Positions 2,023 to 33,907 are shown, numbered from the stretch's first letter. The stretch: DNA of 34,670 bases from Gemmatimonadota bacterium (GCA_038128265.1 JAYPJE010000004.1:1-34670), one strand, 5' to 3'. A program made the numbers and translations. The notes: a model not told the origin generated them from the letters alone.

Positions 2023-2042
2023 TATAGACAAGGGAATCGGCG

Positions 2043-2861: not shown

Positions 2862-2869
2862 GATTCTCG

Positions 2870-4144: not shown

Positions 4145-4247
4145 GCTCCCCTCAAATAGTTCACCACATCGCCTATAGTATTTCTGCGCTCTGCCGAACG
4201 TTTAGCTATATTTCTTACGTGCGGACAACACTGAACCCTAGACCGTA

Positions 4248-5381: not shown

Positions 5382-5460
5382 TGCGCCCGACGTTACGCAG
5401 CCTGCCCACTGCGGCGGACCGACCCAAAATAAACCGGCCCGCCAGCGCTACGCTTCACCC

Positions 5461-6444: not shown

Positions 6445-7232
6445 GAGCCTATTGGGCCCTTTTTAGCGGTCGTCTGCGCATGCTGCTGCAGTATCGCACC
6501 GCCGCGCTGGCCGGCCTAACCACGCAGCTATTCTGGGGCCTAATACGCGTCATGGCGTTTGAGGCATTTTACCGTTCCAGCAGCCGTCCCATGCCTCTAT
6601 CCATCGAGCAAACCGTTGACTATATCTGGCTCGGCCAGGCTTTTCTCATGCTCTTGCCCATGCGCCTCGACGCTGAAATACGCGCCATGGTGCGCTCCGG
6701 CAGCGTGGCCTACGAGTTGGTGCGTCCCCTCGACCTATATACCCTTTGGTATGCGCGCACCGTTGCCTCGTGCTTGGCTCCTACCGCACTGCGCTGCCTG
6801 CCTCTATGCGGCATCGCTCTCTTTGTATTCGACATGCGGCTGCCTCCTTCGGCAGCAGCGGCCATGGCGTTCATCCTGTCGATGGGGACCTCGCTCCTCC
6901 TCGCTGCAGCTCTTTCCAACCTGCTCAACATAACGCTGCTTTGGACCCTGGCTGGCGAGGGTACGGCCAATATTCTACAGGTGGCAACGTTCCTTTTTTG
7001 CGGCATGATCGTTCCCCTCCCGCTCTTTCCCGACGTTCTCCAGCCCATCTTAGAGCACGCGCCCTTTGCCGGCTTGATGGACCTGCCCTTTCGCCTCTAC
7101 ACCGGTCATATTCCAGCGGACGAAGTCGCCAGCGTGCTGGGTCGGCAGATGTTCTGGATTGTCACCCTCGTGCTCGGCGGTCGCTGGCTGCTAGCGCGCG
7201 GCACCCGCGTCCTAGTGGCACAGGGGGGCTGA
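6441..7232 (+). CDS. ABC-2 family permease (DUF990-type)
   Basis: GTGA overlap with the ATPase stop; about 6 TM helices; 'VRSGSVAYELVRP'; C-terminal VAQGG. Confidence 0.88.
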   Translation: MRAYWALFSGRLRMLLQYRTAALAGLTTQLFWGLIRVMAFEAFYRSSSRPMPLSIEQTVDYIWLGQAFLMLLPMRLDAEIRAMVRSGSVAYELVRPLDLYTLWYARTVASCLAPTALRCLPLCGIALFVFDMRLPPSAAAAMAFILSMGTSLLLAAALSNLLNITLLWTLAGEGTANILQVATFLFCGMIVPLPLFPDVLQPILEHAPFAGLMDLPFRLYTGHIPADEVASVLGRQMFWIVTLVLGGRWLLARGTRVLVAQGG

Positions 7233-7233
7233 A

Positions 7234-8037
7234 ATGCACGATGGTCTTACATTATACGTTCGCTATATCAGCGCGTCGTTTCGCAGCCAGATGCAGTACC
7301 GCGCCTCCTTTATCATGACAACGTTGGCCCATTTCCTCATGACGGGTCTAGAATTTCTCGCCATCTGGGTGCTCTTTGCTCGCTTTGAGCACCTGGGCTC
7401 TTGGCGCTTAGAAGAAATCTGTCTGTTCTACGGTCTTATCAATATGGCCTTCGCCCTGACGGATGCGACTTCGCGCGGCTTCGACACCTTTCACCACATG
7501 GTCAAAACGGGTGAATTCGACCGCCTGCTGCTGCGTCCGCGCAGCACCGTGCTTCAACTCGCGGGTCAGGAATTTACCCTGCGGCGCATCGGCCGCTTTA
7601 GCCAAGGTCTGCTGGTCTTTCTCTACGCTACTCAAGCACTCAGCATCGAATGGACCGCGGCAAAAATGGCGCTAGTAGCCCTTACCATCTTGGGCGGGGC
7701 CTGCCTTTTTTACGGATTGATCGTGCTGCAGGCCACCCTGTCCTTTTGGACTACGGAATCGTTAGAAATCGTCAATACTGTCACCTACGGCGGCGTGCAG
7801 ACGGCGCAGTATCCGCTCACGATATACCGCACTTGGTTTCGCCAGGTATTCACTTATATCATTCCCCTGGCCAGCATCAGCTACTATCCATCCCTAGCCC
7901 TATTGGAACGGGTCGACCCGCTCGGGTCCGACCCACTGTTCCAATGGCTCTCACCGACCATTGGCATTGCCTTCTTACTCGTCTGTCTACAGATATGGCA
8001 TCTCGGCGTGCGTCACTACCGATCGACAGGGAGCTGA
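7234..8037 (+). CDS. ABC-2 family permease (DUF990-type), second subunit
   Basis: 'GEFDRLLLRP', 'QYPLTIY', C-terminal 'YRSTGS'; 1 nt after the previous stop. Confidence 0.88.
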   Translation: MHDGLTLYVRYISASFRSQMQYRASFIMTTLAHFLMTGLEFLAIWVLFARFEHLGSWRLEEICLFYGLINMAFALTDATSRGFDTFHHMVKTGEFDRLLLRPRSTVLQLAGQEFTLRRIGRFSQGLLVFLYATQALSIEWTAAKMALVALTILGGACLFYGLIVLQATLSFWTTESLEIVNTVTYGGVQTAQYPLTIYRTWFRQVFTYIIPLASISYYPSLALLERVDPLGSDPLFQWLSPTIGIAFLLVCLQIWHLGVRHYRSTGS

Positions 8038-8953: not shown

Positions 8954-9817
8954 TTAGCGGGCAAATACTTTCTCTTCTAGTGGCTTTTGCAACTCGTATA
9001 TACCGCCGCCGGCGCGCTCACCGGCGGGCAAGCGAGTGCGCGCCGTCATCGACACCAAACGAAAGTCATGGGTGGGCTCTCCCCGCAGTATATTGGCGTT
9101 AAACGCAGACCAATCGCTCACCCCACCCAGCGGCCAGGCATCAACCGCCGCATATTGATAGAGCAACAGCCGGCGCCCGTGCAGCGAGGTATTTTGTGCT
9201 GAACCATGCAGCGTTCGGGCATGGTGAATGGAAAGTGATCCGGCACTCAGCACCAGCGGCACGGCCGATGAGAGATCAATATGATCGCGCATTGGACTGA
9301 TGGCACCGATAAAGACCCCGTCCTGATGATGGTCGAGTATCGGCCCCTTGTGCGAACCGGGCACCACCATCATACAGCCATTTTCTTCTGTGGCATCTTC
9401 GAGCGCAATACCAACAGCACATAAGTCGTCATTGGTATGCGGATAGTGCGCAAAGTCTTGATGCCACTCGACGGCACTGCCCACCTCGGGCGGCTTCATG
9501 TTGAGCTTGTTCCCCTGGGCGCGAATGGCATGGCCTATCAGTGGAGACAGCATATCGAGCACGCGCGGATCGCGCATCAACTCATCGAAAAAGGGATGAT
9601 AGGTCACCGGAGAAGACATCCTACGCACCTTGGGGTTTTCCGCCGTATGCCCCGGTTCTAGGTCGAAATGTCGATTCTGCTCTGTAACCAGACGGGACGC
9701 TTCGACAAAATCATCGACGATTGCTCGCGCCGTATCAACTTCGTCTGCTCGCAGCACATTCTCAACTATTAGATAGCCCTGCGTCTGGTAGAATTCAACC
9801 TGTTCCTGAGTGAGCAT
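8954..9817 (-). CDS. PhyH-family Fe(II)/2-oxoglutarate dioxygenase
   Basis: LTQEQVEFYQTQGYL, WHQD, ENGCMMVVPGSH, HARTLHGS..N.S..RR; GGAGG RBS. Confidence 0.9.
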   Translation of the reverse strand: MLTQEQVEFYQTQGYLIVENVLRADEVDTARAIVDDFVEASRLVTEQNRHFDLEPGHTAENPKVRRMSSPVTYHPFFDELMRDPRVLDMLSPLIGHAIRAQGNKLNMKPPEVGSAVEWHQDFAHYPHTNDDLCAVGIALEDATEENGCMMVVPGSHKGPILDHHQDGVFIGAISPMRDHIDLSSAVPLVLSAGSLSIHHARTLHGSAQNTSLHGRRLLLYQYAAVDAWPLGGVSDWSAFNANILRGEPTHDFRLVSMTARTRLPAGERAGGGIYELQKPLEEKVFAR

Positions 9818-11089: not shown

Positions 11090-11821
11090 CTAGCTCGCCA
11101 TCATTGAACGCATTTTTTCCGCAATCCAGTCGATGGCCACATCGGCCATCACGCGCCCTTTCTTCGGCGTAGACAGATCGCGTCCGGCTTGAAAATACTC
11201 CGGATCCCTCGGGCGATAGGTCTCACTCTGAATATCGAGGTTGGCCGCTTCGTAATCGACGCCTTCCCAGTGGATATTTTCCGGGAACGCGGCCATCGCA
11301 AACGAGGTTTCGAACTCAGCTGCATGCGCCGGACAATCTTTGGAATCCAAAATCTCGTCGACGAATTCCTTGGAGTAGGCTTCCCAGTAGCTGTGAAACT
11401 GCACGTCGATGCCTAGTTTTTCGCTAAAACCCGCCACTTCATTGCGCAGAGGTCCATTGCCGGCGTGGCCGTTGCAGATCAGAATGTGCTCGACGCCCAG
11501 GCGCTGCAGCGACTCACATATATCGTAGGCTACCGTAAAGAACGTCTCTGGGCGCAGGCTGAGCGTGCCTTTGAACTCCATCCAGTGCTCGGAAATGCCC
11601 ACCGACATCGGCGTGGCAACCACGGCCTGGGGGTAGAGCTGCAGAGCCGCCTGGTGGGCCACGTAAGCCGCACTAGCCGTATCGTGCTCCATCGCCAAAT
11701 GCTCGTTGTGCTGCTCCGTGCTGCCGGTCGGCAGTATCGCCGCCTTGATCAATCCCTCCTCTAAGCGCTGACGCACGTGGCGGCGAGTCAGCTTCCACAA
11801 GCGCACTTCTTCTACGATCAT
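11090..11821 (-). CDS. Creatininase family protein (second, divergent paralog; 243 aa)
   Basis: GSTEQHNEHL..EHD, NGHAGN, HAAEFETS; start at ATG 11821 after a GGGAGAACGGGAG purine tract. Confidence 0.87.
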   Translation of the reverse strand: MIVEEVRLWKLTRRHVRQRLEEGLIKAAILPTGSTEQHNEHLAMEHDTASAAYVAHQAALQLYPQAVVATPMSVGISEHWMEFKGTLSLRPETFFTVAYDICESLQRLGVEHILICNGHAGNGPLRNEVAGFSEKLGIDVQFHSYWEAYSKEFVDEILDSKDCPAHAAEFETSFAMAAFPENIHWEGVDYEAANLDIQSETYRPRDPEYFQAGRDLSTPKKGRVMADVAIDWIAEKMRSMMAS

Positions 11822-11860
11822 CTCCCGTTCTCCCTGATTCAGGGGCCTATGCCCCATTTG

Positions 11861-11889
11861 TTGACAACCTTCTTTACAGGCAGTATCAT
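11861..11889 (+). promoter_or_regulatory. Near-consensus sigma70 promoter for the 11933..14997 unit
   Basis: TTGACA (11861-11866), 17 nt, TATCAT (11884-11889). Confidence 0.75.
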
Positions 11890-11932
11890 GCACAATTATC
11901 GCCCTAGCCACAACCACCCTATGAGGTTTTTT

Positions 11933-14068
11933 ATGGCCCACCCGCAGCGCGTCCCAAGCGGAGTATTCGTCGACTGTCACAGCCATTGGAAGGGTCGATT
12001 TAACGGCGAACAGGCGATCTCATTCGCCAAGTACCAGGGGGGCATTCTCTCCGTCGGCAGCGACGGCAGCGACCGCCGCAGCGGGTTGCGCAACGCCGCG
12101 CTGCGCTTGGCCTGCCGAGTGCGCATGGTCTGTCGCCAAGAGCCTTCGGCTGACGACTGCGATCAACCGGTGCTCATCCGGCAGGAAAACGACCCGGCCC
12201 CCAAGTTTTCGTTTTTGGAAGAAGGCCCCGTGCGCTTGGGCATGCGGGTAGCCTTCGACCTACTCGACGAGGCGGGCCACTACCACGGCGACGGGCGCCA
12301 GGACGTCTGGTTCTATCCCAACGGCGACCTGCACTGCACCTTCACTATGCAGATCGTCGATCGCGCTGGCCACGGCCCCATCGGGGATGCCTTTGTCGAG
12401 GTGGTCGACGACGGACGCTATACGCAGCTACACCTCGGACCGGAAACGCTGAGCGAATACGGCGCGACCGACCGTCCGTTCGGCCCGCAGCTCGAAGAGC
12501 GGGCCGTATTTCTCGAGAACGAATCGGAAACGGCCGCCCTGTTCTGGGCGCGCGATGAGGGCCATGTCTGGAAGGTTGGATCCGACCACGGCCCGCTGCC
12601 GCCCTTTTACGCCTCGCGCTGGCCCACCGGCATGCAGCAGTGGGCGCGCGGCGGCATGGGGTGGACCTGTCGCTCAGCATCGGCCGGAGTCGAAGCCTCC
12701 CTATGGGAAGAGGGTTCGACCGTGCGCCTGTGCTGGCTGCGCGACGGCCGCGTCGAAGCAGAGCGGGAGGGCGAATGCACCTTTACCGCCTCGCTTATCG
12801 TGGCTCGCGGGGCCGATCGCCAGGCGCTGCAGAGCCGAATTGAGGCCGTGCAAGCACCGCTCACTCCCCGCGTTGTGGGCGGCGACCTACGCTGCTACAC
12901 CGAAGAAGACGGCACCTACGAAATCGGTCAAGTCGATCCAACGGCGGTGCAGATTGTCTTTCCGGCCGATCCGCTAGCGCGCGACGTGCGCGTGCGCTTT
13001 TACCGCCGCAAAACGGATCCGCGCCACCGCGGCGGCGTCGTAGCCACAGCCGACGGACAGCGCATTCCGGTGCAGCTGGTATCCGAGGGCGAACTAACCG
13101 ACGATATCTGCGTGCCCATTGAGATGTCGCACCGAAGAGACTCCGTCGACGACGTGCTGATCGCAGCGCGCTTACACCCAGAGCGCGAGACCGTTCTGCG
13201 CATCGAAAAAGTGCCCGGCATTCAGGTGGTGTATCAGAGCGAGATTGGCGGCGTCGACCTCAAGCGGCGCGCCGGCAACCGCCGCGATTTGGTCGTCTGG
13301 AGCAGCCACAACCCGCAGGCACCCCTGCTGGAATTCGACCTGTTCTCGGGTGCCGTCCACCGCCTGACGCACTACGCTTCGGCCGATCCGGTCGTGTGGG
13401 AAATGCCGATGGCTTTTTTCAAGTCGTGTGGCATTTCCAAGCACAACTACTGCAGCGATGTGCGCGCGTTTCGCCTCGACGAAGACGGTCCCGACGCCAT
13501 CGCCCTGTATTTCTGTGCCACCAATCCCAGCGGGCGCGCCCAGTCGGAAACCTGGCTGCGCATCCCCTACGACCATCCGCGGCCGCGCCTAGAGGTGCGC
13601 ATGCGCTTTACCGCGCTCGAGCAGTGGGACGATGACAACGTCGAGTTCACCGATATTTTCCCCTATCCCTCGCGCCTGCCGGAAACGTGGTTTCACGACG
13701 CCGTGCTCTTTGTTCAGGGCGGCGAGAGTTTTGTCAAACACAGCTACCGCCCCGACCTGAGTGGCGGCCAACAGGGCGAGGGACAGCGCCTCTTTTACGC
13801 CCTCTATCCGTCGCAGCGCGGCAACGTGCTCACACTAATCGACAATCCCGACCCCAACCAAAAGATGCACTATTCGGTCTGCGGCAACTACGTCGACATT
13901 CACGTCAACTTCCACCCGCAGCAGGTCCCCGCTCCGGCTGGCACCGCGTTTGACATCCGCTATATATGCGAGGTGTACGGCGACGAGCACGCGAGCGTAG
14001 ACGTGCTAAAACAAATCGGTTTGCGCGCTACCGAAACGGGCGATATACGCATTGATCCGGGAGCTTGA
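11933..14068 (+). CDS. Large hypothetical protein (711 aa), predicted beta-rich, possibly carbohydrate-active
   Basis: Long open frame; ATG 11933 is 6 nt after GAGG and downstream of the promoter; no signal peptide; no family recognised. Confidence 0.75.
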   Translation: MAHPQRVPSGVFVDCHSHWKGRFNGEQAISFAKYQGGILSVGSDGSDRRSGLRNAALRLACRVRMVCRQEPSADDCDQPVLIRQENDPAPKFSFLEEGPVRLGMRVAFDLLDEAGHYHGDGRQDVWFYPNGDLHCTFTMQIVDRAGHGPIGDAFVEVVDDGRYTQLHLGPETLSEYGATDRPFGPQLEERAVFLENESETAALFWARDEGHVWKVGSDHGPLPPFYASRWPTGMQQWARGGMGWTCRSASAGVEASLWEEGSTVRLCWLRDGRVEAEREGECTFTASLIVARGADRQALQSRIEAVQAPLTPRVVGGDLRCYTEEDGTYEIGQVDPTAVQIVFPADPLARDVRVRFYRRKTDPRHRGGVVATADGQRIPVQLVSEGELTDDICVPIEMSHRRDSVDDVLIAARLHPERETVLRIEKVPGIQVVYQSEIGGVDLKRRAGNRRDLVVWSSHNPQAPLLEFDLFSGAVHRLTHYASADPVVWEMPMAFFKSCGISKHNYCSDVRAFRLDEDGPDAIALYFCATNPSGRAQSETWLRIPYDHPRPRLEVRMRFTALEQWDDDNVEFTDIFPYPSRLPETWFHDAVLFVQGGESFVKHSYRPDLSGGQQGEGQRLFYALYPSQRGNVLTLIDNPDPNQKMHYSVCGNYVDIHVNFHPQQVPAPAGTAFDIRYICEVYGDEHASVDVLKQIGLRATETGDIRIDPGA

Positions 14069-23562: not shown

Positions 23563-26295
23563 TCAATGCGCTTCGAGCCAGTCGCGCCCCGTGCCCATTT
23601 CCACTTCGATAGGCACCTCCATCGGCAGCGCCTCACGCATCGCTCGGCCAATCACCTCGGGCACGCTGTCCCTCTCGCTCAGATGCAGATCAAAAACTAG
23701 TTCGTCGTGCACCTGTAGGAGCATCTTGCTCTTGGCATCGCGCAATTCGGCGTGGATGCGATTCATCGCCAGCTTGATCATATCGGCAGCGGACCCCTGA
23801 ATGCGCGTATTGATTGCATTGCGCTCGGCCCCTTTGCGCGTGTTGGCATTGCGCGAGTTGATATCGCGCAGGTAGCGCCGCCGGCCCGTCACCGTTTCGA
23901 CATAGCCTTTCTCGCGCGCAAACTCCACCGTTTCTTCGATGTAGTTTTCCACGCCGGGATACTGAGCAAAGTACTGCTTGATAAGTTCGGCCGCCTCAAA
24001 GCGATTGATGTCGAGGCGCTCGGCCAGACCAAAGGCGGATATGCCGTAGATTATGCCGAAGTTTACGGTCTTGGCCTGGCGACGCATATCGTCGGTGACA
24101 CCCTCGGCATCGACGCCATAAATCTTCATCGCCGTGGTCATGTGGATATCGCCCCCCTCGCGAAAGGTCTGCAGCATATCGCCGTCGCTGCTCAGCTCGG
24201 CGGCCACGCGCAGTTCAATCTGCGAATAGTCGGCCGAAAGCAGCACAAAATCCTCCCCGCGCGGCACAAAGGCACGGCGAATTTCGCGGCCCTGCTCGGA
24301 GCGAATGGGGATGGTCTGCAGGTTGGGGCTGTGCGACTGCATGCGACCCGTTGCCGTCACCGCCTGTTCGTAGTGGGTATGTACGCGACCCGTATCGGCA
24401 AACACGGTACCGGGCAGCATGTCGATATAGGTCGATTTGAGCTTGGTGTGCAAGCGGTAGTCCAGCACCCGCTGGGCAATTTCGTGGCGATGGGCCAAGC
24501 GACGCAGCACCTGCTCACTCGTTTGAAACTGGCCCGTCTTAGCCGTGCGCCGCGCGTTGGGATCGAGGGCCAGCTTCTCAAATAGAATGGCACCTAGCTG
24601 CTGACCCGAGTTGAGATTAAACTCCTCGTCGGCCAGTTCGTAAATGCGCTCCGCCGTGTGGTCGATATGGTCTTGGAAATCGCGGGCCATTGCCTCCAAT
24701 ACCTGCGTTTCCATGCGGACACCCTCGTGCTCCATTTCTACGAGCACGGGCAGGAGCGGGCACTCTATTTCATAAAACACGCGCTGCTGGCCCATCTCGA
24801 CTATTTTCTCGCGCAGCACGCCGGCCAACTGCCAGGTGATATCGGCATCCTCAACCGCATACTCGACCACCTCGTCGAGCGGCACGAGATTCATACTGAG
24901 CTGATCCTCGCCCTTTTCGCCAATAAGCTCGGCAATGGAAATGGGCTGATAGTGCAGGATCGTCTGCGCCAAGTGGTCCATGCTGCGCCGTCCTTCGGGG
25001 TCGATTAGCGCAGCCGCCAGCATGGTGTCGAAGAAAGGGCCCTCGACGTGGATGTCGTGCCAGCGCAGCACGCCTAGGTCGAACTTCAGGTTGTGCCCCA
25101 CTTTCTCGCTCTGCCCTGCGAACACCGGACGAAATTCCTCTAACAGAGCCTGCGCTTTGGATCGTTCGCTCGGAAAGGGCACGTAATAACCCCGATGGGC
25201 CTCCCAAGAAAAGGCCAGCCCGACGAGCCCGCAGCGCTTCACGTCGAGCCCGGTGGTCTCGGCGTCAAAACAGAACGACGCGCATTCGAGCAGCTGGCGC
25301 ACCAACGCCGCGCGCGCCTCGGCGGTATCGACGAGCTGGTAGTCGTGCGGAACCGCTTCAATGGTCTTTAGTTCGACCGGTGCACTGCCCTGCCCTCCGG
25401 TGGCCATTTCGGCAAAGTCTTCGCCCAGCACGCGCTTGCCCAGGGTATTAAACTCCAATTCTACAAAGAGCGCGGCCAGCTTCTGCCCGTCCCACGCATC
25501 GAAGCGCATGGCGTCCCAATCGGGTTCGATGGGCACGTTGCGGTCGATGGTAACGAGCTCTTTTGAGAGCAGAGCCTGATCGCGATACTGCTCGACGTTT
25601 TCCTTCTGTTTGCCTTTCAGTTCACCCACGCCTTCCAGCACCCCTTCGAGGCTGCCAAAGCGCGCAATGAGCTTTTGCGCCGTTTTTTCGCCAATGCCGG
25701 GCACACCGGGAATATTGTCGGACGCATCGCCCATTAGGCCGAGCATATCGACAACTTGATCGATGCGTTCGATCGCCCAGCGCTCGAGGATCTCCCCGAC
25801 CCCCTGCACCTCGGCTTCATCGCCGGCGCGCCCCGGCTTGTAAATAACGGTCTTAGCGGAAACCAACTGGCCGTAGTCCTTGTCCGGCGTCACCATATAG
25901 GTAGTGAACCCCTCGGCCTCGGCCCGCTGTGCCAGCGTGCCGATCACGTCGTCGGCTTCCCATCCGGGCATTTTTATAACGGGCATATTAAACGCTTCGC
26001 ACAGCTGAAAAACGTAGGGTAGCGCCTGGCTCAGGTCTTCGGGCATGGCCTCGCGCTGCGCCTTGTACTCGGCAAACATTTTGTGTCGGTGCGTTGGTTC
26101 AGGCGTATCGAAGACGACGGCTATATGCGTAGGCTGCTCGCGGTCGAGAATGCTCAACAGGGTGTTGGCAAAGGCGAATACAGCCGAGGTATTCATGCCC
26201 TGCGATGTCATGCGAGGATTGCGCATCAGGGCAAAATGCCCGCGATAAACCAGCGCCATCCCATCGAGTAGAAAGAGTTTTTTCTCGTCGCTCAT
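23563..26295 (-). CDS. polA: DNA polymerase I
   Basis: 5'-3' exonuclease (LLDG, EADD, GDASDNIPG), 3'-5' exonuclease DAETTG, polymerase motifs ADYSQIELR, AKTVNFGIIYG, QVHDELV. Confidence 0.98.
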   Translation of the reverse strand: MSDEKKLFLLDGMALVYRGHFALMRNPRMTSQGMNTSAVFAFANTLLSILDREQPTHIAVVFDTPEPTHRHKMFAEYKAQREAMPEDLSQALPYVFQLCEAFNMPVIKMPGWEADDVIGTLAQRAEAEGFTTYMVTPDKDYGQLVSAKTVIYKPGRAGDEAEVQGVGEILERWAIERIDQVVDMLGLMGDASDNIPGVPGIGEKTAQKLIARFGSLEGVLEGVGELKGKQKENVEQYRDQALLSKELVTIDRNVPIEPDWDAMRFDAWDGQKLAALFVELEFNTLGKRVLGEDFAEMATGGQGSAPVELKTIEAVPHDYQLVDTAEARAALVRQLLECASFCFDAETTGLDVKRCGLVGLAFSWEAHRGYYVPFPSERSKAQALLEEFRPVFAGQSEKVGHNLKFDLGVLRWHDIHVEGPFFDTMLAAALIDPEGRRSMDHLAQTILHYQPISIAELIGEKGEDQLSMNLVPLDEVVEYAVEDADITWQLAGVLREKIVEMGQQRVFYEIECPLLPVLVEMEHEGVRMETQVLEAMARDFQDHIDHTAERIYELADEEFNLNSGQQLGAILFEKLALDPNARRTAKTGQFQTSEQVLRRLAHRHEIAQRVLDYRLHTKLKSTYIDMLPGTVFADTGRVHTHYEQAVTATGRMQSHSPNLQTIPIRSEQGREIRRAFVPRGEDFVLLSADYSQIELRVAAELSSDGDMLQTFREGGDIHMTTAMKIYGVDAEGVTDDMRRQAKTVNFGIIYGISAFGLAERLDINRFEAAELIKQYFAQYPGVENYIEETVEFAREKGYVETVTGRRRYLRDINSRNANTRKGAERNAINTRIQGSAADMIKLAMNRIHAELRDAKSKMLLQVHDELVFDLHLSERDSVPEVIGRAMREALPMEVPIEVEMGTGRDWLEAH

Positions 26296-26436
26296 TGCAG
26301 TCCCATCGAGTAAATGAAAAGCTGGCCATATACTACCTTACACCCGTATATAGCACAAGCGCCGGCCTGGGCAATCGCTTATCTTTCTGTGCATGAAAAA
26401 CGACCGCTCGAACCGCCTATCGCACTAGCCGTTGCC

Positions 26437-28107
26437 ATGGACGACCAACTAGCCGAGATACAGCGGCAACTCAAGGCGCAATGGGGGCTGGAATTCAGGC
26501 GCATCTGCCGTGCAGTCTGCGCGTTGAATACTGGCGCCTACGTGTTGCCAGAAGACCTGGTAACGCAGTCGAGCCTATCGCACCGAGCCGTCGAACAGGT
26601 GCTCAACTGTCTGCGGCCCGTTTTGCAACAGGACGGGGCGCGTGTGCGCTTCGACACCGCGCACCAAGCGCGTGTCGCACAGCTCTTTGCACCCCCAGAC
26701 CTGCCGGCCGACCCTTGGGAGGAGCGTGCCAGACAGCATCCAGCACTGGCATCGCTGGCGAAAATCCTGAGCGAGCGACCGCGGCCCAATCGCCACCTAG
26801 ACCACGTCGCGGCCACCCCGCTCACCGCGCTTAAACGCGCGCTGTTCCTGGCTACGCAGTACGATTTATCGGACGCGTCGCTGCTCATGCTTGGCGACCA
26901 CGATATGACGGCCCTAGCGCTAGCCCATCTCAACCCCGACCTCGACCTGGCCGTAGTAGATATCGAGGAGCACCTGCTCGACTACATCGGCACCTTTAAC
27001 AGACAGCACGGCGCCTCTATCCGCACCTACTTTGCCGATCTACGCGTGGAACTACCCGCGAGCATAGCGGGCCAATTCGACCTCGTCTTTACCGATCCAC
27101 CCTATAGCGAAAACGGCGTTGGCCTCTTTTTACAGCGCGCTATCTGCGCGCTCAACGAACGCGAGTTTACGCGCATTTTTCTCTCCTATGGCTACGGCGA
27201 ACAGCAAGTTAGCTTGGGACAGAAAGTGCAGGAAGTGCTCGGTCAGCTGCGCCTGCTCCACGAAGCCATTCTGCCGCGCTTTAACGGCTATGCGGCGGCC
27301 CCTGCTCTGGGTCGGCGCAGCGATTTATATATCCTACGGCCAACGCGGCGCAGCCTGCCGGCGGCCCTGCGCCGCCGCGGAGATGCGCAGATCTACACCC
27401 AGGGACGCAGTGCGCGTGAAACGAAGACCCAAGAGCAGCCTGTTGCGCTGAGTGCTGCGATGGCCGATGCAGCAAAAGACTGGGCGGCTAACGATGTCCT
27501 TTGCGTTGGCTCTCGGCCCCCTAACGCACCATCTGATGCGGCACTGCACATGGCGCTAGGCGAATACATACAGGCCATCCGCGAGGGCGATGCCGCTGTG
27601 CTCAAGCGACGCTGCGCCATCATCAACCTCTATCCGCACCATCCGCACTACGCGCTGCGCGCGTGCTTGCTTGGGCACGCCGAGCATCTGCTGGTCTGCG
27701 CGGAGCAACGCTCGCTGGCCGACCTATTCGCCCACCCATCCGAGCAGCTACGCCTCGTCGAATCGACCCTTACTCTGCGCCAGCGCGTGCAGGAAGGCAA
27801 CGTTGCTTTTGTCGAGCTGTACCGACGCGGCGATGTGTCTACCGACGATAGCACACTATTGCTGCGCCAGATCGTAGCGCGGCGACGTGCGCGCTTAGGC
27901 AACGCCTGGCGCGAAGCACTTATTTACACCGCGCGCACGGTCGGTATCGCCCTGAGCAAAAATCAAGCACGCCAGTTTATTGCCCGTACTGCACTGGGCG
28001 CAGAGCACGCAAAAAGCTATATATGGGAAGTGCCCGCCACCGCGCTAGCCCAACTGCCAAGCAGTGCCGAAGCGAGCATGCAATCAGCACGGCGCGAAGG
28101 CGCGTAA
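26437..28107 (+). CDS. BpsA/DUF43-like SAM-fold transferase (bis-aminopropyl spermidine synthase family) with C-terminal extension
   Basis: RPRP...LDH..ATP.T..KRA, LLMLGDHDMTALAL, VVDIE..LL.YI, DLR..LP, FDLVFTDPPY..G..LFL.RA; start uncertain (no clear RBS). Confidence 0.75.
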   Translation: MDDQLAEIQRQLKAQWGLEFRRICRAVCALNTGAYVLPEDLVTQSSLSHRAVEQVLNCLRPVLQQDGARVRFDTAHQARVAQLFAPPDLPADPWEERARQHPALASLAKILSERPRPNRHLDHVAATPLTALKRALFLATQYDLSDASLLMLGDHDMTALALAHLNPDLDLAVVDIEEHLLDYIGTFNRQHGASIRTYFADLRVELPASIAGQFDLVFTDPPYSENGVGLFLQRAICALNEREFTRIFLSYGYGEQQVSLGQKVQEVLGQLRLLHEAILPRFNGYAAAPALGRRSDLYILRPTRRSLPAALRRRGDAQIYTQGRSARETKTQEQPVALSAAMADAAKDWAANDVLCVGSRPPNAPSDAALHMALGEYIQAIREGDAAVLKRRCAIINLYPHHPHYALRACLLGHAEHLLVCAEQRSLADLFAHPSEQLRLVESTLTLRQRVQEGNVAFVELYRRGDVSTDDSTLLLRQIVARRRARLGNAWREALIYTARTVGIALSKNQARQFIARTALGAEHAKSYIWEVPATALAQLPSSAEASMQSARREGA

Positions 28108-28121
28108 AAAACGGAGGACCT

Positions 28122-28880
28122 ATGAACGATACGCTACGCACACTGGGCCTAAAGGCCGCCCCGCTCAGCGCCGAACAGCAGCGCCAGCTAGACGAACAGG
28201 GCTACTTGATTCTGGAAGGAATGATCGATAAGGACTGGTGCGAAAACCTACGCGCAGCCTTTGATCGAATTCACGCCAGCGAAGGAAGCGAAGCGGGCAA
28301 AGAAGTCGCCCAGGTCGAAGGCGTCCGACGCCTGGCAGACCTAGTCAACAAAGACGCATGCTTTGACGCGGTATATCTCCAACCCACGCTGCTGGCTGCC
28401 GTCCACCACGTATTGCAGCGACCGTTTAAACTGCATTCGCTCAACGGACACGACCCGCTGCAAGGATCCGGGCTGCAGAACCTGCACGCCGACACCGGCG
28501 AGCCCTGCAGCCCAGGCGGCCCATACCACGTCGTCAACTCGATGTGGATGCTCGACGATTTCACAGCGGAAAACGGGGCAACGCGCCTGGTACCCGGCAG
28601 CCATCTAAAAGCCGGACGCATTCGCGACTACGTAGAGGACCAAAGCGCCGACCACCCCGAACAGATCCACCTGCTGGGCAAGGCCGGTAGCGTGGCCGTT
28701 TTTAATGGCAGCGTCTGGCACAGTTCGTATATCAACCGCAGCGGCGCCACTCGCCGCACGCTGCACTGCGCCTTTATCGCGCGCGAACACAAGCAGCAGA
28801 CCGATCAGCGCCACTATCTGCGCCCCGATACGGCGGCTCGCCTCTCGCCGCTGGCGCGCTACGTGCTCGACGTCGACTAG
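28122..28880 (+). CDS. PhyH-family Fe(II)/2OG dioxygenase
   Basis: LDEQGYL, QNLHAD, WMLDDFTAENGATRLVPGSH, VWHS..N.S..RR; GGAGG RBS before ATG 28122. Confidence 0.9.
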   Translation: MNDTLRTLGLKAAPLSAEQQRQLDEQGYLILEGMIDKDWCENLRAAFDRIHASEGSEAGKEVAQVEGVRRLADLVNKDACFDAVYLQPTLLAAVHHVLQRPFKLHSLNGHDPLQGSGLQNLHADTGEPCSPGGPYHVVNSMWMLDDFTAENGATRLVPGSHLKAGRIRDYVEDQSADHPEQIHLLGKAGSVAVFNGSVWHSSYINRSGATRRTLHCAFIAREHKQQTDQRHYLRPDTAARLSPLARYVLDVD

Positions 28881-28916: not shown

Positions 28917-29762
28917 TTATACCACGGTGTTTTCTTCGTCGTAGTAGCGATTCACCCCCGGCTCCTCGCCCATACCGTGCCAGGCACCGCGGAAGAGCGT
29001 TTGCCGCTTGGCCGGCAGCGCCGCAATGACCTCGGCCGGCGGATGCCCTTTGCCCCATTTTGAGTTAACGGTATCGTAGCAGGTGAACAAGCTCAGGCGG
29101 TCGCGCTCTTCGTTGGACCAGCGCTGACCCGTGTGGCACAGCGCCTCGGTGAAAATAACGGCCGAACCAGCCGGACAGGCATAGGTTTCCCACAGCGGAC
29201 TATCGCGGCTGCTCCACTCTTCCGGACGCGGGAACGCCGCCTTGTGGCTGCCCGACAGAAAGAGGGTGCCGCCGTCTCCCTCGCCCACCTCATTGAGTTC
29301 CCATACTACGCGCGTCAATCCGGAGTGAATGCGCCCGGGCTGCATTTGGTAGATATGCGAATTGCCTCTGAAGTTGAAATAGCCCCCGCCCCCGTGCGGG
29401 CCAAAATTATCATTACCGGCCTTGCGATGGCTCGTATAGGTATGATCGTAGCGAAAGCCGTAACACTCCTCTGTGGCCAGCGCCTGATGGGAGAGAATTT
29501 CGTTGAGCACGCCCACGACAATCGGGTGGTCGAGCAGAATCTGCGACGGCCCGCCGTGATTGTCCCGTTCGTCAGGCGGCAGCGCATCGCGCTCATAGAG
29601 AAACTTCATTTGGTGCGCGCGCACGGCTTCGAGCTGCTCGTCGCTCAATAAATTGGGCAAGGCGATCCACCCCTTGACGTCAAAGAGGTACTTCTGTGCA
29701 TCGCTCATCGGCACAACGGCCAGTCCATCGCCATTGGTCGTCGGCAAAAGCTGCGCGCTCAT
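28917..29762 (-). CDS. PhyH-like Fe/2OG oxygenase with atypical H-G-G motif
   Basis: QKYLFDVKGW, LLDHP, PHGGG, VVWEL, GGTLFLSGSHK, FTEALCH, RLSLF. Confidence 0.82.
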   Translation of the reverse strand: MSAQLLPTTNGDGLAVVPMSDAQKYLFDVKGWIALPNLLSDEQLEAVRAHQMKFLYERDALPPDERDNHGGPSQILLDHPIVVGVLNEILSHQALATEECYGFRYDHTYTSHRKAGNDNFGPHGGGGYFNFRGNSHIYQMQPGRIHSGLTRVVWELNEVGEGDGGTLFLSGSHKAAFPRPEEWSSRDSPLWETYACPAGSAVIFTEALCHTGQRWSNEERDRLSLFTCYDTVNSKWGKGHPPAEVIAALPAKRQTLFRGAWHGMGEEPGVNRYYDEENTVV

Positions 29763-29818: not shown

Positions 29819-30829
29819 TTATGTCTGCCAGTTAAATACGACATTGAGCATATTTTTTTCGCGGCGGTAGGCCATCTCATAGGCTTCGACCATATCGACA
29901 TAGGGCATGCGGTGGCTCACCAGTTGGCTGGGTTTAAGCTTTCCATCGGCCATCAGGTCAAGCATCTGCGCACAGAGCGCATCGGCGCCCAAGCGCGCAT
30001 CCGAACCCGGGTAGAGATCGCCGGCCTTTCCGCTGACGGCTATCAGCGAAATGCCCTTGGCGTAAAACCAACGCATATCGAGCGGATTGCAGTCGAGTGG
30101 GGCCTCGCCGCGACCCGGCAGAGCGACAATGGATACGCGCCCATCTTGGCGCACGACGTCGACGGCCGTGCGATAGGCCGGCCACGGATTGGCGGTTAGA
30201 ATAACCAAGTCAATACCTGCACCCCGCGTCCACTGCTGGAGTTTATCCGTTAAGGCCGCATCATCGGACAGCATCACCTCGTGCGCCCCCATGCGCCGCG
30301 CCATCTCCAGGCGCAGTGGGCTATTACCTAGCGCTACGACACGCGCACCAAAGAGCGGCCCCAGCGCCACGGCGCCCATTCCCAGCACGCCCAATCCGAC
30401 AACGGCCACGCGCTCTCCTGGCACGAAGTGAGCCTTTTGATAGCACAGCGCGCTCAGCGCGTAGAGGTGGGCAAACACGGCGTCCTCCCCATCAACGCCT
30501 TCGGGGACGCGAACGATGGACTCGCCCTCGCGCGCCACGTATTCGGACTGGTGCGGGTAGCGTGAAACTACGCGGTCACCCACCGCAAAGCGACTCACCG
30601 CCGCGCCGACCTTACGCACCACCCCCAAGTTGCTATCGCCTACCCAGCGCGGATAGTCGGGTGCTCCGGGCACGGGCTCGGCCCCCTCGTAGTTGCCGCG
30701 ATCGGTGCCGATCTTAAACCCCGTCACCAGCGTTTCAACCCAGAGCTGATCGTCCTCTAAATTGGATGCGTCGAGAGGATGCTCTTCAATACGCAAATCG
30801 CGCGGGCCGTGCAGCATGGCAATTTTCAT
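29819..30829 (-). CDS. MDR superfamily dehydrogenase lacking canonical Zn ligands
   Basis: GroES-like N-terminus (GPRDLRIEE, VGDRV), Rossmann VVGLGVLG, GIDLVI. Confidence 0.85.
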   Translation of the reverse strand: MKIAMLHGPRDLRIEEHPLDASNLEDDQLWVETLVTGFKIGTDRGNYEGAEPVPGAPDYPRWVGDSNLGVVRKVGAAVSRFAVGDRVVSRYPHQSEYVAREGESIVRVPEGVDGEDAVFAHLYALSALCYQKAHFVPGERVAVVGLGVLGMGAVALGPLFGARVVALGNSPLRLEMARRMGAHEVMLSDDAALTDKLQQWTRGAGIDLVILTANPWPAYRTAVDVVRQDGRVSIVALPGRGEAPLDCNPLDMRWFYAKGISLIAVSGKAGDLYPGSDARLGADALCAQMLDLMADGKLKPSQLVSHRMPYVDMVEAYEMAYRREKNMLNVVFNWQT

Positions 30830-30844
30830 CGGATCGATACTCCC

Positions 30845-32026
30845 TCACTCATCATACGCCGTATAGTCGTCTTCTATGTCATTAACGCGCACCGGCAGAC
30901 CCGCTTCGGCCGAGCGTATAGCCGCCAGCGTGCAGCGCAGCGCTCCGGTGCCTTCGGCCGCGCCGTAACGCACCTCGGTCCCACCCAAGATCGCGTCGAC
31001 CAGATGGTGGATCTGCGCGACGTGCCCGTGACTATAGTAGGCGATATCGGAATCCCACACATCATCGCCCCCTTCGTCAAAGCGAAACGTCTCGCTGGTG
31101 CGCCCGGATCGATGCAGCAGTAAGTGGGTCTGCTCCCCGCCCCATAGCAAATTGTGTCCGCCTTCGCCTAGCACTTCGATCATGCCCTTCTCGCCGCTTA
31201 TCGTCGTGGAAAAACCGCGGCGGTAATCGTACTGGCCGTTGAGTCGCTCCGAGCGCATCCACACGCCCTGACAGCGACCACTGGCGTGTTTCCAGGTTAT
31301 GATGGGTATGTCGACACCGCCGCGCGCATAGGGATCGTGACGCGCGCCGGCATGCCCATCGCCGTTCCGACGACCCTCTGCCCGCACCGCATAGATTTCT
31401 TCAATGGGGTCACCGAGCGCAAAATATTCGGCCGTGGCAAAAAAGTGCACGGCGTGATCGAAGATCCACGGGTGGTTGCCGCCACCCGAGGCACGCCCAT
31501 CAATGCGCCACGTGCGATCGGAAGGTCCCGTATCGATGCGCGGCTGGACGCGCTCGATCCAGTCGCCGTGGCGCTGGCGAATTTGCCGCGGGGAGCCAAT
31601 AGCACCCTCTGCGATCAGCTGATGGGCCTTTTGATGGGCGCTGATAAACACATACGTTTCACCGACAAGAAGCTGCACTCCGCGCGCGCGCGCCGCCCGC
31701 TGCAAGGCAAGCCCCTCACCAACGCTGCGACAAAAGGGCTTCTCGCAGTGGACATGGGCTCCGGCTTCAATCGCTCCGCGTGCCATCGGCGCGTGCAAAA
31801 AGGTCGGCGTGGCAATATCGACCACATCGAGCTGGGCCGAGGCGAGCATTTCAGCGTAGTCGACGTACACCCGATCTACAGAAAACTGCTCGGCAAAGCG
31901 GGCGGCACGCTGGCCATCGCGATCGCACACAGCCACTACCTCGGCCTGCGGATGGCTGGCATAGCCCTTCCAATGCGCCGTCGAGACCAGACCCAAGCCC
32001 ACCATACCTACGCGTAGGGCACCCAT
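30845..32026 (-). CDS. Gfo/Idh/MocA family oxidoreductase
   Basis: VGMVGLG, VVAVCD, IATPTFLH, HVHCEKP, DHAVH. Confidence 0.92.
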   Translation of the reverse strand: MGALRVGMVGLGLVSTAHWKGYASHPQAEVVAVCDRDGQRAARFAEQFSVDRVYVDYAEMLASAQLDVVDIATPTFLHAPMARGAIEAGAHVHCEKPFCRSVGEGLALQRAARARGVQLLVGETYVFISAHQKAHQLIAEGAIGSPRQIRQRHGDWIERVQPRIDTGPSDRTWRIDGRASGGGNHPWIFDHAVHFFATAEYFALGDPIEEIYAVRAEGRRNGDGHAGARHDPYARGGVDIPIITWKHASGRCQGVWMRSERLNGQYDYRRGFSTTISGEKGMIEVLGEGGHNLLWGGEQTHLLLHRSGRTSETFRFDEGGDDVWDSDIAYYSHGHVAQIHHLVDAILGGTEVRYGAAEGTGALRCTLAAIRSAEAGLPVRVNDIEDDYTAYDE

Positions 32027-33907
32027 CTACAGACCGATCTCGTGGCGCAGCGCCTGTGTCGATGCGACCCAATTGCCGACATTCCAGCGCCCAAACGCGC
32101 CGAGCCCACCGAGTGCATTATCGCCGTAGTAGACGGGAACATGTATGAGGGAAAGTCCATCGTAGGCGTGCGCCTTAGCCAGCGCGGATAACAGGTCTTC
32201 CGGCGCGTAGCCACCCGATAGTCCTTGCACACCGTCGATGGAATGAGCCCAGCCCACATAGTCGATCGCGACACCGTCTCGGGTGGCGAAGTCGGCTCCA
32301 TACTGCGCCGTTTGCAACGCGGATATCGCTCCCATGCGCCGATTGTCCAGGAGTAGAATGCAGCCGCGCGCTCCGTGTTCGACCCCGTCTATGAGGATCT
32401 GTGGATTCATGGTAAACGACCCATCACCGCTGAAAGCCAACCCGTAAAAAGGTGCATCAGCCAGCCCCGTAGCCAGCAGGGCCGATGCGGCAAAACCCAT
32501 ATAGCTGGCTCCCGTCTCCGTGAATGTCTGGCCAAGGCGCTCGTCCTCTACAACCTGGAAACCGTTGGCCTGCACGTCGCCGGCGTCGAAAAAAGCGACC
32601 GCACCGACCTCCCGCGCCCACGTGCTGGCGATGTGAATGGCCGCTGGCTGCGTTAGCACCTCCCTTCCCCACGTCTCGTCGTGCAGCACCGGTGCGCGGT
32701 AGCGCGCGCCTTTGAAGGCGTCCCACTCGGCCTTCTTTTGCCCACATCCCTGCAGCCAAGCCGAAGGCTCTTGTCCTCGTTGGGCTCCTTCCGCCCGCAG
32801 CGCCGCGTTGAGCATTTCTATCGTCGAAGCCGCGTCGCCCACTAGCGCAAGCGTGTTCCCGTAGTGGGTTGCCGCTTCGAGGTCGGCGTTGATATTGATA
32901 ACCTGTTGCACCTTCGGGTAACCGGTGCGCGAGCAGTCGGCCTGACAGACAGAGCGCGAACCGATGGCCACCAGCACATCAGCCTGCTCCATCGCATAGT
33001 TGCCGCTAATCGACCCCTTGGATCCCCCCACCGTCATATTGCGCGGGTGCCCGTAGGGCAGGACGCCGGAGACGAGCGGACTGGTGACGGCCACCGCATC
33101 GGCCAAATCGAGCAACGTAGGCAGTGCCTCGGCGCAGCCACGCGCGCCACCGCCCACTTTAACGACGACGCGGCGCGCAGATATCAGCGCGCGGGCCGCG
33201 CGCGCGTAGCGCCCCCCGTCAGCTGCTGCGCCTAACGGCGGCGGGGCACCCTGCGGTAGCTCCCGCATATTGAAGGCGACCATCTCAGCCGGTTGCGTAT
33301 TGAGCGGCAGCAGGAGAAAAAAGGGACTGGCGCGGTGCGGGTGATCGACGGCGTTGAGTCCGCGGCGCAGTGCCGTGGGCAGCGCCTGCGGGGTGTGCAG
33401 TGCGTAGGCCGGACCCGCCGTAGCAAAGAGGTTCAGATAGGCGCCCTGCCCGCCGCTGGGGATCTGCTGCATATTGGGGCCCTCGTCTTCGCTGGTCTCG
33501 TCGCCGAGCAAATACCAAACGCCCAGCCCGTTCGAACGGGGCACAAGAGAGGCCGCCAGCGCCTGCAGCGCACCGGGGCCAATCGAAGTGACGACGGCCG
33601 CCTTCTCGCCCGTTACCCAGCGCAGCGCCACCGCCGCGTGCGAAGCTTCAATTTCGCTGCGCACGCCGCAGACCCGTAGAAGGCCGGCATCGGCGTATAT
33701 GCGCAACACCTCGCCGACTTCGGTCGAGCCGTGTCCCAGTACGCACAGGAAGCGCGTCACGCCCTGGCGCAACAGCCCCAATACCAGCGCTTCTGATACG
33801 GTGAGATCTATCCGCTGCGGTAAGGCACCGCTGGCAAGTGCCCGTTCTAAACTCCCAGCGGCAGCGATTGCAGCAGCGCGGGCTGCGCGTTCTTCCACGG
33901 AATCCAT
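32027..33907 (-). CDS. ThDP-dependent enzyme, divergent IolD-like (cyclic 1,2-dione acylhydrolase)
   Basis: LTVSEALV, GHG, RSE..ASHAA, TSIGPGA, LGD....P.MQQI, SYMGF, ThDP motif GDGSFTM..DNRRMGAI. Confidence 0.8.
   Translation of the reverse strand: MDSVEERAARAAAIAAAGSLERALASGALPQRIDLTVSEALVLGLLRQGVTRFLCVLGHGSTEVGEVLRIYADAGLLRVCGVRSEIEASHAAVALRWVTGEKAAVVTSIGPGALQALAASLVPRSNGLGVWYLLGDETSEDEGPNMQQIPSGGQGAYLNLFATAGPAYALHTPQALPTALRRGLNAVDHPHRASPFFLLLPLNTQPAEMVAFNMRELPQGAPPPLGAAADGGRYARAARALISARRVVVKVGGGARGCAEALPTLLDLADAVAVTSPLVSGVLPYGHPRNMTVGGSKGSISGNYAMEQADVLVAIGSRSVCQADCSRTGYPKVQQVININADLEAATHYGNTLALVGDAASTIEMLNAALRAEGAQRGQEPSAWLQGCGQKKAEWDAFKGARYRAPVLHDETWGREVLTQPAAIHIASTWAREVGAVAFFDAGDVQANGFQVVEDERLGQTFTETGASYMGFAASALLATGLADAPFYGLAFSGDGSFTMNPQILIDGVEHGARGCILLLDNRRMGAISALQTAQYGADFATRDGVAIDYVGWAHSIDGVQGLSGGYAPEDLLSALAKAHAYDGLSLIHVPVYYGDNALGGLGAFGRWNVGNWVASTQALRHEIGL

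Follow-up and report, generated by a model that had tools for sequence, protein, structure and literature searches.

A stretch of 34,670 nucleotides (nt) from a Gemmatimonadota bacterium (GCA_038128265.1 JAYPJE010000004.1:1-34670; this whole stretch is hereafter the window) carries at positions 26437 to 28107 a gene for a 556-residue protein related to the branched-polyamine synthase BpsA, followed after 14 nt by a gene for a dioxygenase of the PhyH family. The first gene is not a one-off but one of a conserved long-form branch within the DUF43/BpsA_C family. We consider it highly probable that its product is not a bona fide BpsA and that the PhyH dioxygenase is not its conserved partner. Our preferred reading, put forward tentatively from alignments and predicted structures, is that the protein may be an S-adenosylmethionine (SAM)-dependent transferase built on a BpsA scaffold, most likely an N-methyltransferase, with a KsgA/Erm-like C-terminal module that would dock the substrate, possibly RNA or protein. 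Several hundred mesophilic bacteria carry this conserved longer form, which lacks two catalytic hallmarks of BpsA, and the family is likely to be systematically mis-annotated.

A conserved long-form branch of the DUF43/BpsA_C family

An in-frame ATG at 26314 also opens the reading frame, but the start at 26437 is preferred, as 20 aligned homologues begin 0-11 residues from it. The protein matches PF01861 (BpsA_C) with an E value of 1.5e-28; its score of 100.1 bits compares with a cut-off of 27. The match covers residues 107-286 of the protein and positions 6-184 of the 243-position profile, and it bears out the DUF43-like core that an earlier reading of the sequence alone (the sequence-only reading) had proposed. 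The closest solved structures by sequence (phmmer) are 2qm3 and the BpsA structures 5xnc and 6j27, with E values of 6.5e-16 to 4e-9 over residues 105-285 only. The match to BpsA stops near residue 285 and thus leaves about 240-270 extra C-terminal residues, in line with the roughly 240 that had been estimated, and these are modelled as a real additional domain.

A word-indexed search returned 204 homologues at E ≤ 0.001, nearly all of 520-600 residues and with 95-100% of the query aligned; the family as a whole spans 520-620 residues. Two alignments, of 20 and 74 members, show conservation along the whole length of the protein. Positions that are invariant or conserved in at least 90% include L-G-D-H-D-x-T (152-158), D220-P-P-Y223, E255 and F282-N-x-Y285 in the core, and R301-P-T-R-R, I319-Y320, G323, W491-R-E, K508-N-x-A-R and R512 further on. 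Where relatives have database names, these include ‘N4-bis(aminopropyl)spermidine synthase’, ‘bis-aminopropyl spermidine synthase family protein’ and ‘predicted methyltransferase’. Canonical short BpsA sequences were not reached by a search with the N-terminal 330 residues as query, and literature searches on PF01861/DUF43 and BpsA homologues turned up no paper on the long form. With one genome taken per species, 198 stretches encode a relative, and 79 loci (L001-L079) were kept.

The full-length AlphaFold2 (AF2) model, built from 74 sequences, has a mean predicted local distance difference test score (pLDDT) of 91.4 and a predicted template modelling score (pTM) of 0.90. Its best Foldseek matches are BpsA structures, with 5xnc at an E value of 4.7e-18 and a template modelling (TM) score of 0.62 normalised to the target; the alignment has 330 columns against a target of 353 residues, at 22% identity. 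Secondary structure assigned to the N-terminal domain by DSSP consists of helices at residues 2-30, 38-45, 49-62 and 74-83 and strands at 63-66 and 69-72. The helix-turn-helix-like N-terminal segment described in the sequence-only reading is thus present, but it is no addition to the enzyme: because the Foldseek alignment spans 330 columns of 5xnc, this winged-helix part is the ordinary N-terminal domain of BpsA.

Active-site motifs depart from characterised BpsA

Characterised BpsA (EC 2.5.1.128; Thermococcus kodakarensis and Thermus thermophilus; 5xnc, 6j27) resembles the long form in its N-terminal domain and class I core. According to a 2026 review (PMC12979288), the G157-D158-D159-D160 motif of the T. 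kodakarensis enzyme (Tk-BpsA) is indispensable, with Asp159 and Asp160 forming salt bridges to the aminopropyl group of decarboxylated SAM (dcSAM); Asp225, Glu259, Tyr290 and Tyr316 activate the polyamine; and the enzyme works by a ping-pong mechanism in which aminopropyl groups are carried by an acidic C-terminal cluster (E339/D342-E345).

Residues were mapped through a HMMER alignment to 5xnc, in which the chain index equals the native number plus 20. Asp159 corresponds to H155, Asp225 to D220, the Glu of DPPE to Y223, Glu259 to E255 and Tyr290 to Y285; no equivalent of Tyr316 was mapped in this alignment. The long form therefore reads GDHD and DPPY where BpsA has GDDD and DPPE, and the essential Asp159 is lost. 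Both motifs lie where the sequence-only reading had located them, from 26893 and 27094, and the departure from GDDD to which it drew attention proved to be fixed across the family, as did the change from DPPE to DPPY. Among 210 relatives of at least 500 residues, the position of Asp159 is occupied by His in 197, Arg in 7, and Gln, Asn and Asp in one each, with 3 that could not be scored, and DPPY is found in 206.

The acidic carrier tail of BpsA is likewise replaced, by a basic linker and a 227-residue module. Profile positions 185-243 of BpsA_C, the tail-bearing part of the model, are unmatched by the protein, residues 306-335 have a net charge of +3, the linker stretch is modelled with a pLDDT of 60-74, and the long form is about 200 residues longer than BpsA. 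With His in place of Asp159 and a basic linker plus module in place of the acidic tail, two defining features of BpsA, the essential Asp159 and the acidic carrier tail, are missing, and the acidic and aromatic residues on the acceptor side are kept.

The (D/N)PPY motif marks amino-methyltransferases, of which a glycine-rich, SAM-binding motif I is a further hallmark. With N6-adenine methylases, RsmD/Cons_hypoth95 and HemK/PrmC the long form has in common a DPPY after strand 4; it differs from them in its motif I, G-D-H-D rather than glycine-rich, and in scoring below the cut-offs of their models (N6-adenineMlase, 15.7 against 23.2; Cons_hypoth95, 15.5 against 24; PrmC, 16.7 against 199.1). Similarities to N6-adenine methylases, RsmD-like proteins and PrmC around DPPY (E 0.004-0.014) are the sole other family signals in the protein, and its closest overall relatives are aminopropyltransferases, not (D/N)PPY methyltransferases. 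A link to anti-phage defence was considered and set aside, the only trace being a 13.9-bit mad2 match at the DPPY region.

A C-terminal module with a methyltransferase-like fold

Residues 330-556, modelled alone from 33 sequences (pLDDT 94.1), are predicted to fold into an alpha/beta domain of the class I methyltransferase type and, after it, a helical subdomain. The top Foldseek matches of this module are Dim1/KsgA proteins (E 3e-5). Over its 227 residues, VIA-align, which works independently of Foldseek, ranks KsgA 3ftc highest (Z 11.8, 179 residues aligned), then DIMT1 6w6c (Z 11.7) and KsgA 3fut (Z 11.4), followed by Erm38 (Z 11.0) and ErmC' 1qam (Z 10.7). The fold search that the sequence-only reading had recommended for the C-terminal extension thus yielded a second methyltransferase-type fold with a KsgA/Erm-like helical end. 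The likeness to KsgA, Dim1 and Erm (RrnaAD, PF00398) that the model suggests would consist of a Rossmann-type domain and a basic helical subdomain in the same order; the module differs from these enzymes in showing no profile similarity, no conserved cofactor motif and a high root-mean-square deviation, 6.7-8.6 Å when both subdomains are aligned. No column of the module alignment is invariant or 90% conserved within the first 78 residues, where cofactor loops would lie. The helical end (isoelectric point (pI) 11.1, net charge +6) bears the most conserved C-terminal motifs of the family, with W491, R492 and R512 invariant.

The module was found only at the C terminus of the long BpsA-like family, with 316 representatives among 1.84 billion proteins. 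Among the 150 of these 316 matches that were listed, all proteins of at least 500 residues carry the module at their end and shorter ones look like fragments; no module occurring independently of the family was seen among the matches listed. As a separate observation, the source genome encodes two full-length KsgA-family (RrnaAD) proteins (contig C62, 8897-9676; contig C5, 49480-50118), as do several congeners.

Cofactor supply in genomes carrying the long form

In some genomes that carry the long form no SAM decarboxylase (SpeD) was found, which would set it apart from BpsA. PF02675, the SpeD family, is present in 12 of 19 family-bearing genomes tested, including the source genome, and was not found in the other seven, which are all six Spirochaetia carriers and one further genome (G143, 95% complete). 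The Spirochaetia genomes searched for PF02675 are of 4.2-7.1 Mb and mostly at chromosome level, and seven control genomes gave positive results. One Spirochaetia genome without the decarboxylase also lacks SpeE. The class 2 decarboxylase PF01536 was found in none of five Spirochaetia genomes, a result that is uninformative because no positive control responded.

No SpeE above the Pfam cut-off was detected in the source assembly, in which an 809-residue protein on contig C24 has a sub-threshold SpeE-like domain (17 bits). As SpeE is present in 75 of 75 relatives of the same taxonomic family, including seven of seven congeners with or without the BpsA-like gene, its absence is most likely a gap in an assembly that is 84% complete. 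For the same reason the idea that the BpsA-like protein is the only aminopropyltransferase of the genome was rejected. Given the presence of SpeD and SpeE, dcSAM and spermidine are probably available in the source organism. The SpeD locus was also considered for a link to the BpsA-like gene and shows none, its neighbours being a metallophosphoesterase, a two-component system and other unrelated genes. For the family as a whole, the change from Asp to His or Arg together with the absence of SpeD from seven of the 19 carriers favours SAM over dcSAM as the probable cofactor, and dcSAM may still be used in the source organism.

The downstream PhyH gene is probably a local feature

The PhyH-family gene downstream, referred to as P0002, matches PF05721 with 100.7 bits against a cut-off of 22 over profile positions 2-212 of 213. 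The BpsA-like gene ends with TAA at 28105-28107, PhyH begins 14 nt on, as the sequence-only reading had noted, and a scan of the spacer found no terminator-like site. The two genes are probably co-transcribed in the source genome, judging from this arrangement.

Orthologues of P0002 (73-82% identity) directly follow the BpsA-like gene in only three loci, L002, L003 and L004. In L001, whose BpsA-like protein is the closest, no orthologue follows the gene, and two enolase-superfamily genes stand in its place in L005, L009, L012 and L017. In three Spirochaetia genomes, an orthologue (52-54% identity) lies outside the fetched BpsA-like loci, at least 0.2 Mb from the BpsA-like gene if contig numbering follows the records, and a tblastn search of those loci with P0002 gave only weak matches of about 26% identity. 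The PhyH gene that is found downstream in Spirochaetia loci (Pfam E 1.8e-11) is a different paralogue, 22% identical to P0002, with its best source-genome matches on contigs C12 and C96. It adjoins the BpsA-like gene in L007 and L008, lies 2-3 kb off in L006, L010 and L011, and is reduced in L013 (7613-7964) to three fragments of 23, 60 and 45 residues (85-100% identity to the L007 copy) beside an intact transferase open reading frame (ORF). Overall, a hidden Markov model (HMM) built from 72 sequences placed a PhyH ORF no more than 6 kb from the gene in the window and in 15 of the 79 loci, and 63 of the 79 have none at that distance; no actinomycete, Chloroflexota or Dormibacterota locus has such an ORF.

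PhyH matches number 122 in the 4.29-Mb source genome; five Spirochaetia genomes have 125 or more each, the highest count being at least 150. As PhyH accounts for about 3% of genes in carrier genomes, chance adjacency would be expected at a few per cent per neighbour, and adjacency to PhyH is weak evidence in such genomes. Because of the non-orthology, loss and decay across loci, an obligate pair is disfavoured. PhyH as a conserved partner is rejected on the ground of an orthologue that adjoins the gene in three close relatives only and is unlinked or missing elsewhere, and the coupling looks like a local operon only. The dedicated two-gene system that the sequence-only reading had envisaged is consequently not supported, conserved linkage to PhyH being one of the points on which it had been staked. 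Its notion of an ‘oxidative eraser’ is without family support, as P0002 distantly resembles the small-molecule oxygenases DhiD, SptF, TlxI and KanJ (E 1e-9 to 1e-6). Two observations on PhyH stand apart from the pairing: the window holds three PhyH genes in all (8954-9817, minus strand; 28122-28880, plus strand; and 28917-29762, minus strand), and 14 control genomes hold none.

Possible functions of the long form

In the mechanism that we favour, the enzyme would keep the N-terminal winged-helix domain and the class I transferase core of BpsA, with an alteration in the part of the pocket that grips the aminopropyl amine of dcSAM (Asp159 replaced by His, or by Arg in some relatives) and with the aminopropyl-carrying acidic tail gone. 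It would bind ordinary SAM, whose carboxylate would face His or Arg and whose amino group would face the retained Asp156, and, as a DPPY-motif enzyme, might move a methyl group to an amino nitrogen; the C-terminal module would help to dock a large substrate, either RNA or protein. The interchange of His and Arg at position 155 fits a carboxylate-binding or hydrogen-bond-donor role. Of the alternatives in the sequence-only reading, an amino-methyltransferase-type enzyme is thus the one now preferred, and its pairing with an oxidative eraser is unsupported.

Several observations weigh against this proposal. The polyamine-site residues are kept (D220, E255 and Y285, for D225, E259 and Y290 of BpsA, all invariant or more than 90% conserved), as are the equivalents of Asp158 and Asp160; with the acceptor side retained, the acceptor could be a cationic small-molecule amine and the transfer one of an alkyl rather than a methyl group. 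No methyltransferase HMM reaches its cut-off in a profile scan of the protein, and the motif I loop, L-G-D-H-D-(L/M)-T, is unlike the glycine-rich methyltransferase loop. The whole protein is near neutral (median pI 7.4), whereas many RNA enzymes are strongly basic. The likeness of the module to KsgA and Erm is at the level of the fold only: generic methyltransferases commonly reach Z 9-10, on module residues 1-135 only, and many reach Z 9-11 there; hhalign against a 15-sequence KsgA alignment from relatives gave a probability of 0.7%; a module profile searched against PDB returned only an antibody chain at E 1; and Pfam scans of 33 module members gave scattered noise, with 0 of 33 matching RrnaAD. 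Together with a search of the ESM Atlas that gave no usable match, these PDB, Pfam and hhalign results give no sequence-level homology of the module to a known family. SpeD is encoded by 12 of 19 carriers, the source genome among them, and SpeE by all 75 family relatives. Finally, two sister clades each have some PhyH directly downstream, somewhat above the chance expectation of about 3% per neighbour.

Two other chemistries were weighed against N-methyl transfer. Quite unlikely, in our view, is the main proposal of the sequence-only reading, an aminopropyltransferase that would use dcSAM to supply a mesophile with an unusual, perhaps branched, polyamine, which PhyH would then hydroxylate. Such an enzyme would account for the BpsA_C match, for BpsA being the best fold match, for the conserved equivalents of Asp158, Asp160, Asp225, Glu259 and Tyr290, and for SpeD in the source genome and 12 of 19 carriers with SpeE in seven of seven congeners, and the hydroxylation step for a PhyH gene that starts 14 nt on, has its own GGAGG and is separated by no terminator, as well as for the non-orthologous PhyH that follows the gene in Spirochaetia L007 and L008. 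It sits poorly with the replacement of Asp159 in all but 1 of 207 scorable relatives, the absent acidic carrier tail and the lack of PF02675 in six of six Spirochaetia carriers, and the hydroxylation step with a P0002 orthologue that is unlinked beyond three close relatives and absent in L001, a Spirochaetia PhyH degraded in L013, and 63 of 79 loci without PhyH within 6 kb in genomes where about 3% of genes are PhyH. Also unlikely, in our estimation, is a SAM-dependent 3-amino-3-carboxypropyl transferase that would combine the alkyl-transfer geometry of BpsA with SAM itself, His155 or Arg155 taking the carboxylate absent from dcSAM, and yield a carboxy-aminopropylated amine, in the style of nicotianamine synthase/CntL or of RNA aminocarboxypropylation. 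The closest characterised relatives do move a propylamine chain, the acceptor-side residues are kept, the site expected to hold the extra carboxylate is the very one at which an acidic residue has become His, Arg, Gln or Asn, and the family is independent of SpeD in Spirochaetia. Nothing supports this transferase directly, however, and no enzyme that might act next, such as an opine dehydrogenase or a decarboxylase, is conserved in the neighbourhood. Nicotianamine synthase/CntL resembles the long form in idea only, as a class I fold by which an amine receives the amino(carboxy)propyl chain of SAM; neither HMMs nor fold comparison gave evidence for it, no pathway partners lie near the long-form gene, and the ESM Atlas clusters nearest residues 100-330, in which nicotianamine synthase family names occur on 20-72% of members, score 0.82-0.83, the level of shuffled-protein noise. 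Enzymes of the class I fold are overwhelmingly methyltransferases, and the aromatic residue of DPPY is typical of amino-methyltransferases; both count against aminocarboxypropyl transfer.

A catalytically inactive or regulatory winged-helix protein with two degenerate methyltransferase folds, sensing SAM or polyamines or binding nucleic acid, with its position beside polA reflecting a role in DNA metabolism, is highly improbable. The N-terminal winged-helix domain, the non-canonical motif I and a polA-divergent gene order kept in eight related loci are consistent with such a protein. The winged-helix domain is also part of active BpsA, however, the gene lies beside polA in one lineage only, its neighbours being different in Actinomycetota and Spirochaetia, and D154, D156, D220, P222, Y223 and E255 are at least 90% conserved across phyla, which argues for chemistry. 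At the other extreme, we offer as a speculative and rather doubtful reading that the long DUF43 branch could be a new enzyme class, in which an aminopropyltransferase scaffold, switched from dcSAM to SAM by the Asp-to-His/Arg change in motif I and fused to a degenerate KsgA/Erm-like docking module, would modify rRNA, tRNA or a protein at an amino nitrogen with a methyl or a 3-amino-3-carboxypropyl group. In that case a macromolecule-modifying enzyme would be hidden under the name ‘bis-aminopropyl spermidine synthase family protein’. The long form offers a natural experiment in re-tooling an aminopropyltransferase pocket for another donor, and the proposed switch of cofactor can be put to the test in it. 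Saccharopolyspora, Lentzea and Kutzneria include cultured carriers.

Distribution and genomic neighbourhood

The 79 loci come from metagenome-assembled genomes (MAGs) titled Gemmatimonadota, Latescibacterota or Planctomycetota, from six Spirochaetia MAGs, and from Chloroflexota, Dormibacterota and many Actinomycetota, the last chiefly Pseudonocardiaceae (Saccharopolyspora, Lentzea, Allokutzneria, Kutzneria and others). Within the source phylum the gene is patchy: 10 of 168 genomes have it, and of the eight genomes of the genus, the source included, five do. BpsA is described as phylogenetically confined to thermophiles in the 2026 review (PMC12979288); the carriers of the long form, in contrast, are mesophiles of marine, estuarine and soil habitats, the soil ones including Pseudonocardiaceae, and even members of one genus may differ in having it. 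Sequencing runs that hold the stretch are labelled as estuary, marine, seawater, aquatic or biofilm metagenomes, so the source organism is taken not to be a thermophile, in agreement with the remark in the sequence-only reading that nothing else in the window suggests one. No RNA runs were found among the listed holders of the stretch.

In a quick unrooted maximum-likelihood tree, the six Spirochaetia proteins (L006-L008, L010, L011 and L013) nest with the clade of the window and L001-L004 (Shimodaira-Hasegawa-like approximate likelihood ratio test support 99), and the proteins of L005, L009, L012 and L017 fall outside that clade despite much closer polA genes. Transfer of the BpsA-like gene between lineages is suggested by these sequences.

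No partner or metabolic neighbour is conserved across lineages in gene-order maps and domain scans of the 79 loci; the maps are approximate, as ORF calling in high-GC actinomycete loci sometimes took antisense frames. A complete polA lies divergently across a 141-nt spacer in the window (Table 1), as the sequence-only reading had recognised, and is kept in eight related loci of one lineage (L001-L005, L009, L012 and L017; 69-88% identity). A sigma-70 scan found no consensus promoter in 26296..26436. Pseudonocardiaceae loci (L025-L079), from at least eight genera, have a divergent OpuA-type glycine-betaine ABC transporter upstream of the BpsA-like gene and a PAS-GGDEF-EAL protein of about 1,080 residues convergent downstream. 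In other actinomycete MAGs the neighbours are GNAT, AzlC or GT2 genes.

Table 1. Features of the BpsA-like locus and its flanks, in window coordinates
Feature	Position	Strand	Basis or remark
polA, full DNA polymerase I, divergent	23563..26295	-	DNA_pol_A E 4e-149 plus both exonuclease domains
Divergent intergenic region, 141 nt	26296..26436	.	Between polA and BpsA-like gene
Long BpsA-like (DUF43/BpsA_C family) gene	26437..28107	+	556 residues plus stop; translation, Pfam, homologues, AF2 model
N-terminal winged-helix-like domain, residues 1-100, common with BpsA	26437..26736	+	DSSP of model; Foldseek to 5xnc
BpsA-type class I transferase core, residues 101-305	26737..27351	+	Pfam 107-286; phmmer alignment to 2qm3 and 5xnc over 105-285
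Motif I GDHD (G153 D154 H155 D156)	26893..26904	+	Aligns with Tk-BpsA G157 D158 D159 D160
Motif IV DPPY (D220-Y223)	27094..27105	+	Aligns with Tk-BpsA DPPE (D225-E228)
Basic linker, residues 306-329, within RPTRRS...IYTQG	27352..27423	+	Replaces acidic BpsA carrier tail
Module first half, residues 330-468, predicted second class I methyltransferase-like Rossmann fold without conserved cofactor motifs	27424..27840	+	Domain model, VIA-align
Module second half, residues 469-556, predicted basic helical subdomain with NAWRE and (S/T)KNQAR motifs	27841..28104	+	VIA-align, Foldseek
14-nt spacer with Shine-Dalgarno GGAGG (28113-28117) before PhyH start	28108..28121	+	Sequence
PhyH-family Fe(II)/2-oxoglutarate dioxygenase P0002, 252 residues	28122..28880	+	PF05721 E 1.8e-28
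Second, weak PhyH-like gene P0003, convergent	28917..29762	-	PF05721 E 5.5e-7; separate conserved block

Further genes of the window lie outside this locus. P0003 is 79-89% identical in seven related loci, with 79-81% in L005, L009, L012 and L017, where polA is 69-75% identical. It heads a conserved block on the minus strand (29819-33907) with a zinc-type dehydrogenase, a GFO/IDH/MocA oxidoreductase and a thiamine pyrophosphate (TPP) enzyme. Positions 82-8037 on the plus strand encode a DUF6785/DUF6784 protein with creatininase-family and ceramidase-like genes and an ABC-2 transporter set, and a second creatininase-family gene lies at 11090-11986 on the minus strand.

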